Origin: Stegostoma tigrinum
Taxonomy: Eukaryota
Assembly: GCF_030684315.1 (NCBI RefSeq)
Contig: NC_081357.1
Coordinates: 41,031,517-41,095,516 of the forward strand
DNA length: 64,000 bases
Direction of reading: 5' to 3'
Shown: piece after piece, positions 2,801 through 50,000 of the stretch
Layout: each line of letters opens with the position of its first letter
Numbering within the stretch: position 1 is the stretch's first letter
Notes under the pieces: generated by a model
Seen by the model: the letters and a program-made list of their open reading frames with translations, nothing else
Database searches by the model: none
Told to the model about the DNA's origin: nothing
Position numbers and translations under genes: made by a program

Positions 2801-2892
2801 TCCGGAAGACCTGCAATGTAAACAAAAACACCCCGCAGCAAATGATATCGGTAAGAACAAAAGTGAAGTAAGGCACAGGAAGAGGCCCTCTA

Positions 2893-3126
2893 TAATAAGA
2901 TAATAAAATGTGAGGCTGGATGAACACAGCAGGCCAAGCAGCATCTCAGGAGCACAAAAGCTGACGTTTCGGGCCTAGACCCTTCATCAGAGAGCTCTCT
3001 GATGAAGGGTCTAGGCCCGAAACGTCAGCTTTTGTGCTCCTGAGATGCTGCTTGGCCTGCTGTGTTCATCCAGCCTCACATTTTATTATCTTGGAATCTC
3101 CAGCATCTGCAGTTCCCATTATCTCT
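2893..3126. mobile_element. Fold-back Penelope-like terminal fragment with hammerhead cores on both strands
   Basis: Perfect IR 2897-2994/2995-3092; 13-bp TSD aagaggccctcta (2880-2892, 3127-3139); near-identical to terminus of GIY-YIG element at 12360. Confidence 0.88.
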
Positions 3127-3546
3127 AAGAGGCCCTCTAACCCTGTGCCGATCAACATGCCCTGACTAAACCGGAGGAAAACCTTCTGCCCTTAATCGGT
3201 CGGTATCCCTCTATTCCCTCCATATTCATGTCCCCATTCAGATGACTCTTAAATGTTTTTAATATGCCTGCTTCCACCACCTCCTCTGGTAGTGCATTCC
3301 AGGTTGCTACTGTAAAACCTTCCCTCGCACATTTCCCATAAACTTTCTTTCTCTGATCTTGAACCTGTTTCCCCTTGTAAATGAAACTTCAGCCCTGAGA
3401 AAAGCCTCTGTCTGTGGGTGTCATAATTTTGTAAACTTCTATCAGGTCTCCTCTCAGTCACCATCTTTGCAGTGAAAACAGTTCCCTAATCTTTTTAACC
3501 TTTCCTCATAGCCAATGCCCTCTAGACCTGGCAATATCCTGGTGAA

Positions 3547-3785
3547 GAGATAGTAAGAACTGCCGATGCTGGAATCTGAAATAACACAGTATGGACCTGG
3601 AGGAACAATCCTATCAACATCCCACCGAGCTTGCCCAGCCCCACCCTCCACTATTTATTTCAGAACTCCCTTCCCCATTTCTGAGGAAGGGTCCTAACCC
3701 AAAACGTCAGTTTTCCTGCTCCTCTGATGCTGCCTGGCCTGCTGTGTTCATCCAGCTCCACACTGTGTTATCTATTAATATAGAA
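3547..3785. mobile_element. Penelope-terminus-derived insert, partly inverted, degenerate hammerhead
   Basis: ctgaggaagggtcctaacccaaaacgtc core-like motif; ggtgaa TSD at 3541-3546 and 3786-3791. Confidence 0.65.
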
Positions 3786-7869: not shown

Positions 7870-8055
7870 TTAATGATCAGCTGCCGTCACTAGTTCAAAC
7901 CACTGTCTAAGAGCATCACTGAGTGTTTCTGGAAGGGCATTCACATTTCGTAGAATTATGTAGAATGGGAATGGGAATTCTTCCATATATGATCTAATTT
8001 CTGGACTTTCACCTTGATCCTTGAATATAGGGACTTTAATGTCCAAAATGGAATC
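7870..8055 (-). CDS. MDN1: MDN1 last coding exon (DSILDIKVPIF...DALRQWFELVTAADH*)
   Basis: ccag acceptor, TAA stop at 7872-7870. Confidence 0.96.
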   Translation of the reverse strand, partial: DSILDIKVPIFKDQGESPEIRSYMEEFPFPFYIILRNVNALPETLSDALRQWFELVTAADH

Positions 8056-11000: not shown

Positions 11001-14000
11001 TGTCCAGCCTTTCCACATAAGGTAATCCACTCAGTCCAGGTATTCGCCTAATAAACTGTCTCTGAATTGCTTCCATCACAATAAACCCTTCCATAGGTAT
11101 GGTGACCAGTACTGCAAACAGATGTGGTCTGTGGTATAACTGAAGCATAACTTCCATTCTCTTGCATCGATTATCCACACAATATAAGATATCGTACTAG
11201 CTTGCTTGACTACTTGCTGCACCTGCATACTAACCATCTGTGGTAGATCTCGTTCTAATATATAACCGTCAAGATAATATGTTTCTTTTTTATTCATTCT
11301 GCCAAGATGGACGATTGCTGTTTTCCACATTGTACTTCATTTGCCGGATTTTCAATGCAGGTTTGCATTAATTGTGTCTATTTGAGGGACTCTGAAGAGA
11401 CTCTCAAAATGTATGTTTTTGTTTAAAGTGCAATGACACTAATAGGCATCTTTCTAAAACACTAATGGATGCCTGCTAAGAAACTGACAAATGCATACTA
11501 ATAAAGTGAAGAAATTGGTCCGTTTGATATTTTTAGATTATTTTGAGTTATTTAAAATAAGATTACTCAAAAGGTAATGAACAATATATTCAGCTAAAAT
11601 GATTTCTTTAAGTGATAAATCAATTTAGTTGCATTACTAAATAGAGTACAATTGACAAGTATACACTGATCAGAACGGTGCCAGATGGATCTCATTGACT
11701 ATGAGATCTACGATTGGTGTTGTTAACCTGGGCCAATCAGGGAACCCTATCTGAGAGATATAAACAGGAGATTCAGAGAGTCTCTACATTATAGGGACTG
11801 GGGCACAGAATGAACACACGTACGCATGTAAATAAAGGGTGAGTTGGTGACAGGATATCTGCTTCCTTGGAATTATTTCAAATACTGCTTCATGCATGAA
11901 TAAAGCAATAACAATTCCAAAGTACAGTTCAATTGAGATGGTTTACAAACTGCTTTTTATTTTTAATGCAAAGCAGTTCGAGCAAGAAACTTGAACCATA
12001 AAGTCAATTTTTTAAAAATTAACTACTTTGACCACAGTTTGGACTCACATCTGTACTTGTGTCCAAAGAAGAAACTAAATAACCAAGGCAGAAGCCTACA
12101 CTTAAAAAATGTTCTAGCATCCTAGGCCTTATAAAACACATAGTTCTCTCATTATCATCAACCGTCAGAGATTTAACATAGAGCATTAAGGCTTGATTTT
12201 TGAGACAAAAGAAAATAATTTACAAGTAATCTGTAACATTAAAATGCTTCAAATGAGGCAGGGAGGATGAACACTTATTCACATAAGTCATCATACATAA
12301 AAACATAATAGGCATATCCCTACAATGTGGCATTCCAACCGGAACTCCATCAACAAACAGATAATGGGAACTGCAGATGCTGGAGAATCCAAGACAACAA
12401 AATGTGAGGCTGGATGAACACAGCAGGCCAAGGAGCATCTCAGGAGCACAAAAGCTGACGTTTCGGGCCTAGACCCTTCATCAGAGAGGGGGATGGGGTG
12501 AGGGTTCTGGAATAAATAGGGAGAGAGGGGGAGGCGGACCGAAGATGGAGAGAAAAGAAGATAGGTGGAGAGAGTATAGGTGGGGAGGTAAGGAGGGGAT
12601 AAGTCAGTCCAGGGAAGACGGACAGGTCAAGGAGGTGGGATGAGGTTAGTAGGTAGATGGGGGTGCGGCTTGGGGTGGGAGGAAGGGATGGGTGAGAGGA
12701 AGAACAGGTTAGGGAGGCGGAGACAGGTTGGACTGGTTTTGGGATGCAGTGGGTGGAGGGGAAGAGCTGGGCTGGTTGTGTGGTGCAGTGGGGGGAGGGG
12801 ACGAACTGGGCTGGTTTAGGTATGCAGTTGGGGAAGGGGAGATTTTGAAACTGGTGAAGTCCACATTGATACCATTAGGCTGCAGGGTTCCCAGGCGGAA
12901 TATGAGTTGCTGTTCCTGCAGCCTTCGGGTGGCATCATTGTGGCACTGCAGGAGGCCTGTGATGGACATGTCATCTAAAGAATGGGAGGGGGAGTGGAAA
13001 TGGTTTGCGACTGGGAGGTGCAGTAGTTTGTTGCGAACTGAGCGGAGGTGTTCTGCAAAGCGGTCTCCAAGCTTCCGCTTGGTTTCCCCAATGTAGAGGA
13101 GGCCACACCGGGTACAGTGGATGCAGTATACCACATTGGTAGATGTGCAGGTGAACCTCTGCTTAATGTGGAATGTCATCTTGGGGCCTGGGATAGGGAT
13201 GAGGGGGGAGGTGTGGGGGCAAGTGTAGCATTTCCTGCGGTTGCAGGGGAAGGTGCCGGGTGTGGTGGGGTTGGAGGGCAGTGTGGAGCGAACAAGGGAG
13301 TCACGGAGAGAGTGGTCTCTCCGGAAAGCAGACAGGGGTGGGGATGGAAAAATGTCTTGGGTGGTGGGGTCGGATTGTAGATGGCGGAACATCAACAAAC
13401 ACATTGGTTTGGAGCCCATCTACCATCCTCTGAGAAAAAGAACAGGAGATGACATCACCAATGCAGGAAATGACATCACCAACCCAAGGAAAGCTAAACA
13501 GGTAACTAGAAAGCGGGACCTAACACCAGCGCTTCACCGGAGGCTCACTGATGATGTTACCTAGAATGGTGACGATACGTCTGAAAACTAACCTTCCAGC
13601 TCAGCGAGCAAACTCCCATCTACAATGTAGTATCGAATACACCCTTAATAAGGGGACTAAATCACCACCTTTCACTAGTCCAATTAAAAATGTTATCAAT
13701 CTGAAAAAGTCAACTGTCTTTTGAGATGGGGTGAAACCAGTAATTTCTGTTTTTTATGTCTTCAATAAGTTACAAGTACAAATGCCTGTTGATATCATCC
13801 ACCTTGTTTTCATGTATGCTTACCTACACACGGCAACCTGTCCCACCTCTAGAAGTGACAGCGAATTTCCAATCACAGCCAATGATTCAAAGGCTAGCTA
13901 CAAGAAATAAAATCAAAACACATGAGCATGTTTAGGATATTCCTGGAGTTGGTCAAACTAATTTGGCAATTCAAAACTCCAAAATAAATCCAAGAAATTG

Positions 14001-26000: not shown

Positions 26001-29000
26001 CCCTTTCTATACTATAATTGTGTGTCTAACTACCTGGCGCATTTGTAGATGAGAACTTTTTCTCTGGCTTCAGCTCTTGTACATCCACGCTTTGCAATTC
26101 CTCTTCCTGATCAGTTTCCATTTCAACAGATTCAGTCTCTTCTTCGATCTCCTTTTCCTGTTGAGATCCACCTGAACTTTGTTGCTCTGCTGTGGCTACA
26201 TCTAAAATGAGCAATTTGTAAAATTAGAATAAGGTGATACATTGACTCCATGTACATCTTTCTCCTGAAATCATTTTGTCATTGAGACAAAGATTCTTTT
26301 TCACAGGTTTCTGAATTTGAATAATTCTGAACTCACCAAATGTTTGAGCGTCAAAGGATTCACCGCCTTCTTTGATATGTTCATAAACATCTGCCTCCGT
26401 CACTTTTTGTTCTGACTGGGCCATGTCCTGTTGGGCCGCAATACTGGCTTCCACCATCTTCAGTCGCTTGCTCACATGTTCATTGTGATCACCCAATGTT
26501 CTTTCGGCATCTGTATGACCGGGTTTCCTTTTGTAACTCTTGAGAAAGAACACAGTTTTAGTTTTTCAAAACATTAGAAAGATAACTTGTGTTTCTTACA
26601 TTGTAAAACATTGTGCAACAAAATTTATCTGGATGCTACTTAATCCAATAGACATGAGGACATATTGGGGAGGGGTTACTTTAGACACGTATCCACATCT
26701 CCCGAAGCTTGATTGCCACCCAAAGCACAAGGACCACATTTATTCTTTGTATGTAGATTAACAAACAGGAGAAGATTCTGTTTTAAACTAAAGCAGTGTG
26801 GAAGATGATGTTGCGTATTTAAAACAATGACTTATTGGAATTCATTGTGGGATTATCTACAATGGTACCTTCAAGTAGTGGGGAAGGATGCCAAACATCC
26901 CAGATTTGTTTGTTTGTTTGTTTAGGGGTGGTTTGCCAACTGACAGATTTTTGATTTTTTTTTCAATCAGAGCCAATTGTGTTGAGTTCAGGAGTGTTCA
27001 GCCTACTAACAACATTTTGATTGATTCCTGGGTGATTGGCTAGTGTTATGTCAAGACGGTACAGCAGAAACATCCAGCTTGAAAGATCTCTCCCTTCTGT
27101 AAGTGGAGAAAGCTACTGTCTCTCTGCAGACTCCCTTCTTCAAAGGCAAAGGCAAAGGGGAAAAACCACCTTCAGGGAAACTGACATTGAATGACAGATT
27201 CAGAAATTGAGTGTCCACAACCTCTCATCCCCAAAGAGTAGAAAGGAATTGGAAGGGACTGAAGGCAATCAATTCATCTCTGCCTATAATCCAGAATGGT
27301 GCCAGAACTGTGCTTCACTAACTTTTTTGTTCCTTCCTGCCCATAATGTGTGCATCTTGCCTGGTCTCTGTGAACCGTTTGCCTATGTACGCGGATGTCT
27401 TATAGACTCCTTCCTGAGCTCAACAGAGTGCTGTGTAATTCATTAGTGCAGTCCCAGAGTCCACTATTGCATATGGAAAAATTCAACAGATTTAATTTCC
27501 TGCAGTAAAACAACTTGCATTGTATCCTGTTAGACCTTTTCCTGTATCATTCAAACAAAAATAATGAGAATGTTTCTTCCCACAAGTTACTGCAAGCTAG
27601 TAGCAGCAAAGGAAAGGCACTAGGGCATCTGGAGCTTGATGAACAGTATCTAGAATGTATCTTCTGAACCGATGACATGAGAAAGTCTGAGAAGTAAATA
27701 CAGAAATGACTGGGGATGAGGGGAAAATTCAATGCTCACTCAGGTACTAAAAAACAAGGAGAGAAAAAATATGTTTGGGCTGACAGACAAGAAACAAACA
27801 AGGAATTTTTTTTTTAAAAAATCATTTTTGAACTCAACAATTTGCTAGAGAAGGGATAAGACTCCACATTTCACCTAGCACTCACTTTCTGGACAGAGGG
27901 TGGGTGACTGGCAGTGACTAACAATTATCAAGCCATTAACGGCAATTGCACTATTTAAACTTATCCCAGAGCCAAAGTCTTAATGACCCATTAAAGTGCA
28001 GAAGTACAGTAACTTCATGAAACTGAGGGAGAAGTCAAAATCAAGATGACATTTTCAGAAGCTAACAGAGTGATACAAATCGTCTGGAAACTTGTGACAA
28101 TCAATTGCTGGCATCTCTCTTCCACGCCATGGGTTCCTGGCTCATTTGGACATTAAATGGCAGTGTCATTTGGATGACATTATATTTTTGTAAATTTTCA
28201 GTCAATGCCTCTGGTATTTCATTGAAATAGGTCCTGCTATTACCCCAAAATAGTTTGGCAAAATGTAGAACATCAAAAAAGATTAAGCACAGTGGTGGTA
28301 AGGTTTTACTGCACAGTGAAAGTGCAGATTGAAAACAAAAAACATTGGAAATCACAGGTCAGGCAGCATCTGTGGTGAGAGAACAAGCTAACGTTCTGAG
28401 TCGAGATGATTCTTCATCAGAGCTGATGAAGAGCCATCTAGACTTGAAACATTAGCCTGCTCTCTCTCCATGGATGCTGCCTGACCTGTTGTGATTTCCA
28501 GCATGTTTTGTTTTTCAGTACAGATACCAATAGTATTTTGCTCCTACATTGTGAAAATGAAGACTTGTTTTTGAACAAACCTAAAAAAAATTTATGGTTA
28601 ACATGCAAACTTCATAGCTGATTAATAAGTACTAAATTGCATTTATTGTTGGAACTGCAGGTCTGGCAGCACCTGTGAAGAAAAAGAAATCAGAGTTAAT
28701 GTTTCGGGTCCGGTGACCCTTCCTCAGCATCCACAGTTTTTATTTTGCATTTATAGTTGCTTGGTTAGAGACAACAGTCAATCAAAATAAGTGCTCAAAG
28801 CTCCTGCTGTAATTGAAAACATACAGAAGTAATGCTACAAAAATACACAACTCCATAACATAAAAAAGTAATCATAAAAGTACGACATCTACATGTTTGT
28901 CAAAACAAAATGTTGCCCACCAGTGGAACTGTGGTTTTACCTGCGTTTTGTCCAGGGATTGTTTTTGAGCTGCAACCCGCGCCATCAGTTTGGACTCGTG

Positions 29001-47000: not shown

Positions 47001-50000
47001 CTCAATGACTTGTCCTTCTCACCACCTCCAGGGGAGGAGGGGGGTGGGGGATGGTAGAGGGAGAGATTTACTAGAAGGATGTGGACACTTTGGAGAGGGT
47101 ACAGAAAGAGGCCTACCAGGATGTTAATAAAAACCAAAAGGGCTGCGGATGCTATAAATCAGGAACAAAAACAGAAATTGATGGAAAAGCTCAGCAGGTC
47201 CGGCAGCATCCGAGAGAGAAAACACAGTTAACATTTCGGATCCGGTGGCACTTCCTCAGGACTGTTCTGAGGAAGGATCACCGGATCTGAAACATAAAAT
47301 CTGATTTTCTCTTCACAGATGCTGCCAGACCTGCTGAGCTTTTCCAGCAATTTCTGCTTTTCTTCTTTTTTTTCTAAAACCAGGATGCTTTTTTTTTAAA
47401 ACCAGCCGGGTAGGGGGAATTTTAATTATGAGAAAAGGTTGGATAGACTGGGTTTGTTTTCAATGAAACGCAGGAGGTTGCGGAGCAACCCAAAAGAAGC
47501 TTAAAAGATTATGAATGACATGGATAGAGGGGAAAGTATGAGGCTTTTTCCCTCACAGTGGGATGATCAATTACTAGGGGACACGGGTTCAACGAGCAGT
47601 GGTGGGGGTGGGTGGTTAAAAGAAATGTACAAGGCAGGTTTTTGACACAAAAGGCAAGAGTGTGCCTGGAACATACTGCCAGAGGTAGTGATGCAAACAG
47701 ACACAGTAACAGTATTTAGAAAGCACTTGGACGAAAACATGAGTAGGAAGGGAAGAGAGGGATACGGATCTAAGTGAAGACTGTTTTAATATGGAATGAC
47801 AAAATGTGTTGGTGTGGGCTTGGAGGGCCAAAAGGCCTGTTCCTGTGCTGCACTGTTCTTTGTTCTCATATAGTTTCATTTTCCAATTAAGTAAAACTCT
47901 CAGTCACAAAACTAGATTTCCCTGACAATATTATCTACAATTTAATCTAAAAGCAATGTTTCACACCTTTCTGCAATTGAGAACCTTGGCATTTCCTGTA
48001 GTCAAAGTGAGAGACCTACTCCCAGAGCTACATTAAAATAAGTCCTTCTTCAGCCACAGAAACATAAGAGCTTCACTCGAGGCCAGTTTTGCCGATTTTT
48101 CCACTTGTCCCACCCACTGACTGCATTGAAGTTTCCACTTATTCACTTCATACAGCAGACATTAAGAATTAGTTGAGCACTAGTGAAGGACAAGTTTACA
48201 TCTTAGCAACCCAAGGCCCTGCATACTGCTGCTTGTCGCCTCCTTTACCACAAACAATTTTTGTATAGTTAACAAAATTAAAGATTATGTTCTCATATTA
48301 AATTTCACCAGGAACTGGCAGCTCACATGTTATCCAGCTCATCACCACTGCTAATCAGATTTACAGCTGTCTTCACATCAAGTGGATGCAGGCAAAATAC
48401 ATCCGGAGGGTCATCTGTTCGAGACCAAGCTAGTCCTTTACGGTAAGACAGACCTGAAAAGGAGGAGAGGAAGTACAATACACTGTATTTTAGAATGCTG
48501 TGCACCCAGTTGACTGCAGTTTCTCAGTCTGGAGTTCTTCACACTCCATCTCGCGATTCATCTGAGCTCTCTTCCCCACAAAGCCACTTCAGAACATCCC
48601 ATCATAACCATTCAAATCCTGCCATGGCAGATGGTGGAATTTGAATTCAATAAAATATCTGGAATTAAGAATCTAACGATAACCACAAATCCATTGTTGA
48701 CTGTTGGAAAAACTCATCTGATTCACTAATGCCCTTTAGGGAAAGAAACGGCCATCCTTACCTGGTCTGGCCGACATGTGACTCCAGACCCACAGCAAAT
48801 GTGGTTGACTCTAACTGTCCTCTGGGCAGTTAGGGATGGGCAAAAAGTGCTGCCTGGCTAGTGAACCCTCATCCCGTTAATGAAGAAACAATTAAAAAAA
48901 AGCAATAATTTGGAGCAAGCAGTCAGTGAAGCAAAGTCTCAATGGCAATAAAGCCACTTGATATAGTCCATGCACAACCTTTTTGACTAGCTCTTTTCTA
49001 AACTGGGGCCTGCTTTCAACTAATTAGGTCTTAGCTTTTTGACAATCAAGGCACCTAGAACTACAAGATGGAAATATGAATTGAATTCAAAAGGTAAAGT
49101 CATACAGATGCCACTTGGCATCAAATTCAGTTTCATTTGTAACCCCAGACATGAACTACTCCATGTATTTAATACACAGCCTTAATTAAAATGCATAGGC
49201 TCCTGCTAATGGTACTGGGCAAGACTTCAACCACTGAATAATAGTACACATTATAGGATATAAAACTTCTGTTTAGAGTTTGCACATTCTAACTATTTAT
49301 ATCAATCCTGTCATTTATTTAAGGCCATAGTTTTCGTGGAATAAATCCTGATGTTATAGTTTATCAGGGTTAAGGGAAAGTCCTCAAACGCTTGTAGATG
49401 TCTAGCTCCAGTCCAGAGGAAAATAACAAAATGACAATTAAACACCAAAGCCCTTGGGAGAATCTGCACAAAACTATTCTAGAAATCAATACAGTGCTTG
49501 AAGCTTACCAATTTCAGTGAGATGTTTGAAGAGATCTGCCAAGGCCCTTTGCTTCTGCATCAGAATATGTTTGATTTCCGATCGCTGCTTGTCCTTATCA
49601 GCCATTTGGTCAACAGTAAGACTTTGGAGATCTCGTACAGTAGTGATGACATTACCTACCAGAATCAAGAGACAGCTCATAATTCTTTGGGTTGACTGGG
49701 AAGGTTTATCAGTGGTTAAAATAACAGGCACCTTAAGATTTCCCTAATTTCATTGTTGACAAATACCCGTTGTTAAGAACTACTCATACTCAATGTTGAA
49801 TATTTTGTAGTTGGGATGATCATCAAATTTACCTATGCATACTGTTAATGTAGCCAACAATATAAAGTATATGCAAACTATTCAACATGCTGTCAACAAA
49901 CATGAATAACTAGGAACTCCAGAAGCTACATTTGAGAAAATAAAACTCTGAACACTTTGCACATAAAGATAGCAAAGCGAAATGTAGGGTTAGTGGGCTG

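Follow-up and report, generated by a model that had tools for sequence, protein, structure and literature searches.

Penelope-like elements (PLEs) that carry an endonuclease leave a recognizable footprint, which in excerpts of three reports consists of an inverted, 5′-truncated copy, a tail of 30−40 bp on one side, and a target-site duplication (TSD) (PMC8557442, PMC3846280, PMC2377424). The pLTR of the fly Penelope contains the transcription start site (excerpt of PMC2377424), and the tandem and inverted integration products of PLEs are described as unexplained in an excerpt of PMC8557442. For the Poseidon element of Anolis carolinensis (PAc), the excerpted account of Frangieh et al. (2024, PMC11167929) reports that both target strands are cut and extended in vitro, that two internal start sites of reverse transcription (RT) bound the tail, and that hammerhead cleavage is unnecessary. 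Dimer cleavage of minimal hammerheads is low in vitro, according to part of PMC4209133, and a palindromic Harbinger repeat of Xenopus is, in the excerpt at hand, an ADAR target without a partner copy (PMC5625713). Among literature titles and abstract openings, we found no account of the family described below or of twin priming by PLEs; Repbase or Dfam may catalogue the family.

Here we analyze a palindromic insert beside LYRM2 in a 64-kb window, the whole stretch of DNA under study. The anatomy of the insert is of a known kind, namely, the published PLE footprint. It is very probably a 234-bp insertion composed of two head-to-head PLE hammerhead ends, likely recent, likely neutral, and likely primed from both nicks.

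Anatomy of the Insert

An initial annotation of this DNA had described a perfect, spacerless palindrome flanked by a 13-bp TSD, with one hammerhead core per strand and about 200 bp from the LYRM2 start codon. Our script and motif scan bear out each of these points (Table 1). The two 98-bp arms are exact reverse complements, the TSD copies are identical, and the palindrome lies 193−199 bp from the ATG (minus strand, 2704 or 2698). Among perfect palindromes in the window with arms of at least 9 nt, 2897−3092 is the sole case. Two features are absent from that annotation: on the left, the palindrome is preceded by a 4-nt linker, and a tail of 34 nt is found solely on the right, so that the insert measures 234 bp and is asymmetric. 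The annotation also leaves out the very high copy number described below. The presence of a core on both strands is a trivial consequence of the palindromic sequence. Extra AAT units like those of the linker occur in several of 30 close copies, and the linker is likely the product of primer slippage at initiation.

Table 1. Coordinates of the insert, its parts, and two neighboring features in the window (unit numbering: +1 is the C of CUGAUGA in the pLTR unit)
Feature	Positions	Strand	Basis
Left TSD, 13 bp	2880−2892		identical to 3127−3139
4-nt linker, repeats AAT units at the end of the short arm	2893−2896		sequence
Short inverted pLTR arm, unit −4 to +94, tail-less	2897−2994	−	script
Hammerhead core of inverted arm, minimal type I	2963−2990	−	motif scan
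Long pLTR arm, palindromic part, unit −4 to +94	2995−3092	+	script
Hammerhead core of long arm, minimal type I: CUGAUGA, extra A, short stem II, GAAA-CGUC	2999−3026	+	sequence
PLE tail, 34 nt, on one arm only	3093−3126	+	script
Right TSD, in the head of an older repeat with many copies	3127−3139		flank depth, BLAST
LYRM2 first coding exon, neighbor outside the element	2654−2704	−	next exon matches Complex1_LYR
Longer 5′-truncated copy with GIY-YIG end	12359−13380 (upper bound approximate)	−	frame and GIY-YIG match

If both arms were transcribed, their exact complementarity would produce the 98-bp hairpin that had been anticipated. The predicted RNA fold has an energy of −218.5 kcal/mol (z −27), and 0 of 200 shuffled sequences fold equally well.

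Hammerhead Motif

A scan of positions 1−8000 against Rfam at E values up to 10 returned no match to a hammerhead family, and the core was recognized by its motif together with the published description of minimal hammerhead ribozymes. Matches to Rfam miRNA families in the same interval were rejected as hairpin by-products that score below the gathering score. The assignment to the minimal type, with a palindromic ACGU in place of stem III, holds: the core letters, the extra base before stem II, the G-C first pair, and the palindromic 15.2−16.2 positions are all present. The short stem I, only 2 bp, had also been pointed out, and it recurs across 232 tabulated motifs, in which the first pair is U-A in 217 and the second is C-G in 169, U-G in 28, and U-A in 11.

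The predicted cut in the plus-strand core falls after 3026. In a lone arm, stem II has a predicted pairing probability of 0.72 and the 2-bp stem I has one of 0. Each transcript holds one core, and within the full hairpin the pairing probability of its helices is 0; the hammerhead of an RNA that spans both arms would, on this model, be locked by the hairpin. We also considered hammerhead-cut RNA as the template for new copies. Partner-arm ends do not pile up at the cleavage site; of 3,442 partner arms that end within the core region, 100 were listed, and 3 of these were placed there by eye, which is about the share expected from an even spread over 30 positions. There is thus no sign of cut RNA as template, and this candidate was rejected.

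Parent Element and Copy Number

The Penelope-like origin proposed in the initial annotation is substantiated by longer copies of the unit that carry RT and GIY-YIG sequences directly upstream. Judged from its sequence context, the unit is the pLTR, the end that carries the hammerhead, of a Penelope-like retroelement with an endonuclease. One long copy (L099) has an open frame of 1058 aa with matches to RVT_1 (E 6e-6) and to GIY-YIG (E 3e-3), neither of which reaches its Pfam cut-off. The frame contains YIDD and DKG as well as a CX4CX2C linker (CNRRKCYTC, ahead of the VVY...YIG motif), and it ends about 225 bp before a pLTR unit that is 98% identical. A CX2-5CxxC linker between RT and endonuclease defines the Neptune/Nematis group, to which the CX4CX2C linker points. 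Directly upstream of the long Penelope frame in this copy (L099:24−1337) lies a 438-aa RT frame that we take to belong to a CR1-like LINE.

The pLTR unit is downstream of an RT plus GIY-YIG frame in the long copies L099−L103, and three of these five have a unit with the tail at one end and, at the opposite end, an inverted unit without it. Within the window, the copy at 12359 (Table 1) is 97% identical to the arm plus tail and matches GIY-YIG at E 2e-4, its 22 bits falling just short of the 22.6-bit cut-off; it ties the stub unit to its RT/endonuclease parent. The family thus displays the characters of endonuclease-bearing PLEs: an ORF with RT and C-terminal GIY-YIG linked to the unit, pLTRs in tandem or inverted with 5′ truncation, a one-sided tail of 30−40 bp, and a TSD. 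Two other classes were set aside. A non-LTR retrozyme needs head-to-tail tandem units for circular RNA, and the insert is head-to-head; a MITE or fold-back DNA transposon would have symmetric terminal inverted repeats out to both ends, a fixed short TSD, and a transposase parent, whereas the tail here is one-sided, the TSD variable, and the parent RT-bearing.

In a DNA search, all 40 scored candidates (of 1,148) match nearly the whole 234-bp unit at 96−100% identity. The 3.2-Gb genome contains 92,176 exact copies of the 28-nt core and, by exact patterns, at least 16,310 short head-to-head pairs (14,558 + 1,113 + 639; reversed controls, 0), or about one per 196 kb. The junction pattern has 7,453 and 7,412 matches on the two strands.

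Several related arrangements were seen along the way. An older head-to-head insertion of the same PLE family lies 420 bp away at 3546−3773; it is about 82% alike and its core is damaged, 3546−3607 being an inverted tail-bearing stub whose partner direct arm ends at 3773. A decayed head-to-head pair of an older subfamily occupies 46787−46987, with its tail on the left arm. The pair at about 47130−47365 (cores at 47259 minus and 47267 plus) belongs to a different hammerhead-bearing family, so the head-to-head shape is not confined to one family; a related core is found at 28727−28702 on the minus strand. Elsewhere in the genome, C4:89989958−89991850 holds a retrozyme-like tandem array in which the pLTR and the ORF start recur about every 310 bp, with at least six matches listed.

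Ends, Tails, and Centers across the Family

Two samples were drawn from contig C1. The first comprises 56 consecutive junction loci, here called siblings, and the second 60 of the first 69 cores listed, the nine left out being five in short palindromes already taken and four second members of pairs. Among the siblings, short arms have a median end of +92, and the ends of long arms fall between +123 and +128. Only one tail is present in 53 of the 56 short pairs, and 38 loci have an exact TSD of 10−16 bp. Center strings are diverse, with 32 different ones in the 56 loci and 13 symmetric centers.

In the second sample, arms stop at −1 to −5 in 16 of 60 cases, compared with 7 of 60 across the much wider interval of −6 to −105 (p 1e-16), and others extend as far as −2656. 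An adjacent inverted match accompanies 29 of the 60 arms. Wherever both 3′ ends of a pair are visible, exactly one carries a tail (26 of 26), and the arm lengths are unrelated. In junctions with extra letters, G precedes the arm in 21 of 44, and in longer copies a TATA-like TATTTAT stands 30 nt upstream of −4; both features fit a transcription start and neither proves it. A splice acceptor was rejected as the cause of the −4 end, where there is no AG.

Copies that extend past the tail into the ORF start were expected, as full-length-like copies, to begin at −4. Most do not: of 30 (L164−L193), 4 begin at −2 to −4 and 21 inside the unit. Many tandem joints among copies past the tail link approximately +243 to approximately −90. 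The scarcity of −4 starts together with these joints indicates either a second RNA end or jumps between templates. We also note that 19 of the 30 copies end at +223 to +252 and that many are joined directly to about −90 of the following unit, which could mark a further RNA end or start site.

Proposed Twin Priming and Its Alternatives

We favor an explanation in which the insert was primed from both nicks. The protein of the element would nick both strands 13−16 bp apart, and each nick would prime RT inside the pLTR RNA, one at the far tail end (+125 to +128) and the other at the near end (approximately +92), which resembles the pair of start sites that the anole element uses in vitro. Both cDNAs would then run off an RNA 5′ end located 1−5 nt ahead of the hammerhead core; copies started in the 5′ pLTR and running off the transcript start at the hammerhead edge would resemble strong-stop DNA. 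That 5′ end is likely the transcription start of the element, given the TATA-like motif upstream, although it and the promoter are what we infer from sequence. The two cDNA ends would be joined, often with a few untemplated letters, and the center would therefore be made anew at each insertion. The arms would usually come from one source and sometimes from two unlike templates, and the hammerhead would be carried along passively in the joined product.

Taken as a whole, this five-step route may about equally well prove right or wrong. The general statement that PLEs integrate by symmetric twin priming, in which a protein dimer starts cDNA from each tail end and the products run off and are joined into palindromes, we put forward slightly more tentatively still. 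Counting against twin priming, 31 of the 60 sampled arms have no adjacent inverted partner at the BLAST thresholds used. Symmetric twin priming, if true, would have the 16,000 short palindromes as its joined products; it would account at once for inverted pLTRs, one-sided tails, and stub size, and it would make the genome a large source of self-folding dsRNA.

The strongest competitor is fold-back self-priming, in which one strand turns on itself and is copied into the mirror half; self-priming on an antisense template has already been proposed for the palindromes of rotifer Penelope elements, as an excerpt of PMC3846280 relates. Agreement between arms is what speaks for it. At one diagnostic site, both arms carry the variant in 1,113 pairs (126 expected if the arms were independent) and are mixed in 639 (2,613 expected); over six diagnostic sites, the arms agree in 88% of cases versus 60% in shuffles, and 18 further changes are common to both. 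About three-quarters of the pairs look single-source, as fold-back copying also predicts, and the two arms appear to derive mostly from a single source and sometimes from two. Subfamily concordance between arms can arise from timing alone. The 639 pairs with unlike arms tell against fold-back copying, as do the unrelated arm lengths of long pairs, the untemplated letters in many centers, and the fixed end of the short arm, whose slippage-like AAT repeats make it start-like rather than stop-like. On balance, we consider fold-back unlikely. The diagnostic site could itself be a hot spot for RT errors, and G-rich junctions may stem from end repair.

It is considerably less probable again that the insert is a nonautonomous palindromic mini-element of 230 bp (SINE-, MITE-, or retrozyme-like) that is copied whole through a hairpin RNA or DNA. 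Thousands of copies of near-equal size and the recurrence of one center string in 8 of the 56 sibling loci are what such an element would offer, but the 32 different centers, a size series that runs without a break from the same ends up to kilobase-long arms, a tail on one side only, and the TSD of 13−16 bp argue against it. Edited hairpin templates might also leave an excess of A-to-G changes, and no such ADAR footprint is found in the family copies (A-to-G 0.7% versus T-to-C 0.9%).

Neighboring Genes and Effect at the Locus

The exon that follows the first coding exon of LYRM2 matches Complex1_LYR (E 1.7e-12). The CpG-rich stretch at 2400−2900 adjoins the insert, which is located beyond it. 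Overlapping inverted sites at 2799−2808, upstream of the ATG, presumably are ETS-like (CCGGAA), and they likely form part of the core promoter, some 90 bp away from the insert, as one of its elements. On the other side, the putative last coding exon of an MDN1-like gene, recognized by its motifs, stops at 7872−7870. The element inserted into the head of an older repeat with high copy number (3127−3545, from flank depth and BLAST).

The initial annotation had suggested that this copy acts on LYRM2 through a cruciform, or through dsRNA made by upstream or MDN1 read-through transcription that is presented to ADAR or Dicer. The distance of about 200 bp from the ATG, the adjoining CpG-rich stretch, and the very stable predicted hairpin are in keeping with such a role, as is the heavy editing of frog palindromic Harbinger repeats and lizard Penelope in the excerpted PMC5625713. 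A special role for the locus is not supported: it is one of at least 16,310 pairs, about 51 of which would fall within 500 bp upstream of gene starts by chance placement (with an assumed 20,000 gene starts); at about one pair per 200 kb, a pair near a promoter is expected by chance. The insert is also apparently absent from the orthologous site of a related species, where the promoter is otherwise about 94% alike, and it landed in an older repeat. An MDN1 read-through transcript would have to cross three AATAAA hexamers over about 4.4 kb on the MDN1 strand (7479, 5065, and 3654) and would meet a fourth at the foot of the hairpin, where each arm has one (3082−3087 minus, 2902−2907 plus). An action on LYRM2 is therefore highly improbable, and from the abundance and youth of such insertions neutrality is likely.

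At the level of the family, formation of dsRNA from the stubs is plausible by analogy, because editing of self-folding repeats has precedent in the excerpt of PMC5625713. The thousands of near-perfect intronic hairpins could be a main ADAR substrate in the animal, as palindromic repeats are in the frog.

Age and Reality of the Insertion

That the insertion is young, as the initial annotation had inferred, agrees with its identical arms and with a site that is apparently empty in a related species. The arms are identical including CpG sites; among the siblings, 11 of 56 loci have identical arms and 45 have at least one arm difference. The comparison between species rests on a 4,157-nt orthologous contig (about 6% different) that follows the window from 1100 to 2889 with 107 other letters and then departs from it. 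Loose ends past 2889 resemble the right flank and differ from the arm; they were pooled from 3−6 contigs, among which are further copies of the flanking repeat. At two diagnostic sites, the letters of the older subfamily account for 93−97% of depth in the related species versus 4−6% here. As a separate observation, the loose ends of the related species at the 3127−3545 repeat suggest that about 8 bp is missing from the present genome.

Same-species contigs from two samples cover 2000 to 2914 without a difference, and one covers 3104−3294. The junction contigs carry only 22−23 letters inside the element, under the 31-letter rule, and none spans the center. Runs X12 and X14 yielded scattered short pieces only, with no splice joint among them, and one X14 contig extends 9 letters beyond the left TSD, too few to count. 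The sequencing runs listed for this sequence include no RNA run, which carries no weight as to expression; three raw-read runs, all bisulfite libraries, were left out of the comparison. Together, the same-species contigs and the related-species site indicate that the insert is likely real and younger than the split from that species. That its perfect symmetry is an assembly or polishing artifact is scarcely credible: no contig crosses the palindrome and the best-matching sample may be the assembly's own, but the TSD, one-sided tail, and linker break the symmetry, both junctions occur in contigs (the left in runs of two samples, the right in one record listed), sibling arms differ by independent changes, and 2 of the 56 siblings are likewise perfect and spacerless.

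Comparison with Known Systems

The same head-to-head inverted pLTR with a shorter inverted arm is seen in Pen2a_Av of Adineta vaga (PMC3846280), in the scheme of PMC8557442, and in Penelope of D. virilis (PMC2377424), as far as excerpts of these reports describe them. The published insertions and the present family also have in common a tail at one end (34 nt here), a TSD, and a parent with RT and C-terminal GIY-YIG. Unlike the insertions in those excerpts, the present insert consists of two pLTR stubs only, without an ORF, in a family with more than 16,000 occurrences whose arm ends pile up at the 5′ edge of the hammerhead.

Like the minimal hammerheads that Cervera and de la Peña (2014, PMC4209133, in excerpt) describe from metazoan PLEs, ours has the conserved core, the unpaired base between 9 and 10.1, the G10.1−C11.1 pair, and the palindromic 15.2−16.2 positions. 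Stem I is 2 bp here and in D. virilis, in contrast to 4−5 bp in Schistosoma; the present stem II of 4−5 bp is a difference from the hammerheads in that excerpt. Dual motifs on opposite strands are 100−700 bp apart in the same source, whereas the cores here are separated by 8 nt.

The excerpted Xenopus Harbinger repeat (PMC5625713) and the present stub are both self-folding sequences of about 200 bp. The former is a derivative of a DNA transposon with a palindromic consensus, whereas here the palindrome was likely built at each insertion.

The locus itself is of little importance, and the family provides a very large natural record of PLE integration. A comparable system is PAc, for which the excerpt of PMC11167929 gives RT start sites on either side of the tail, about as far from the hammerhead as here, and a predicted protein dimer, both likenesses to the present element; the excerpt does not address inverted products or run-off at an RNA 5′ end. 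PAc belongs to the Penelope/Poseidon clade, whereas the present element has a CX4CX2C linker of the Neptune/Nematis type. The regularities of the family, namely a single tail in each pair, arm stops at −1 to −5, and a minority of unlike arms, translate into sharp predictions for this existing in vitro system.
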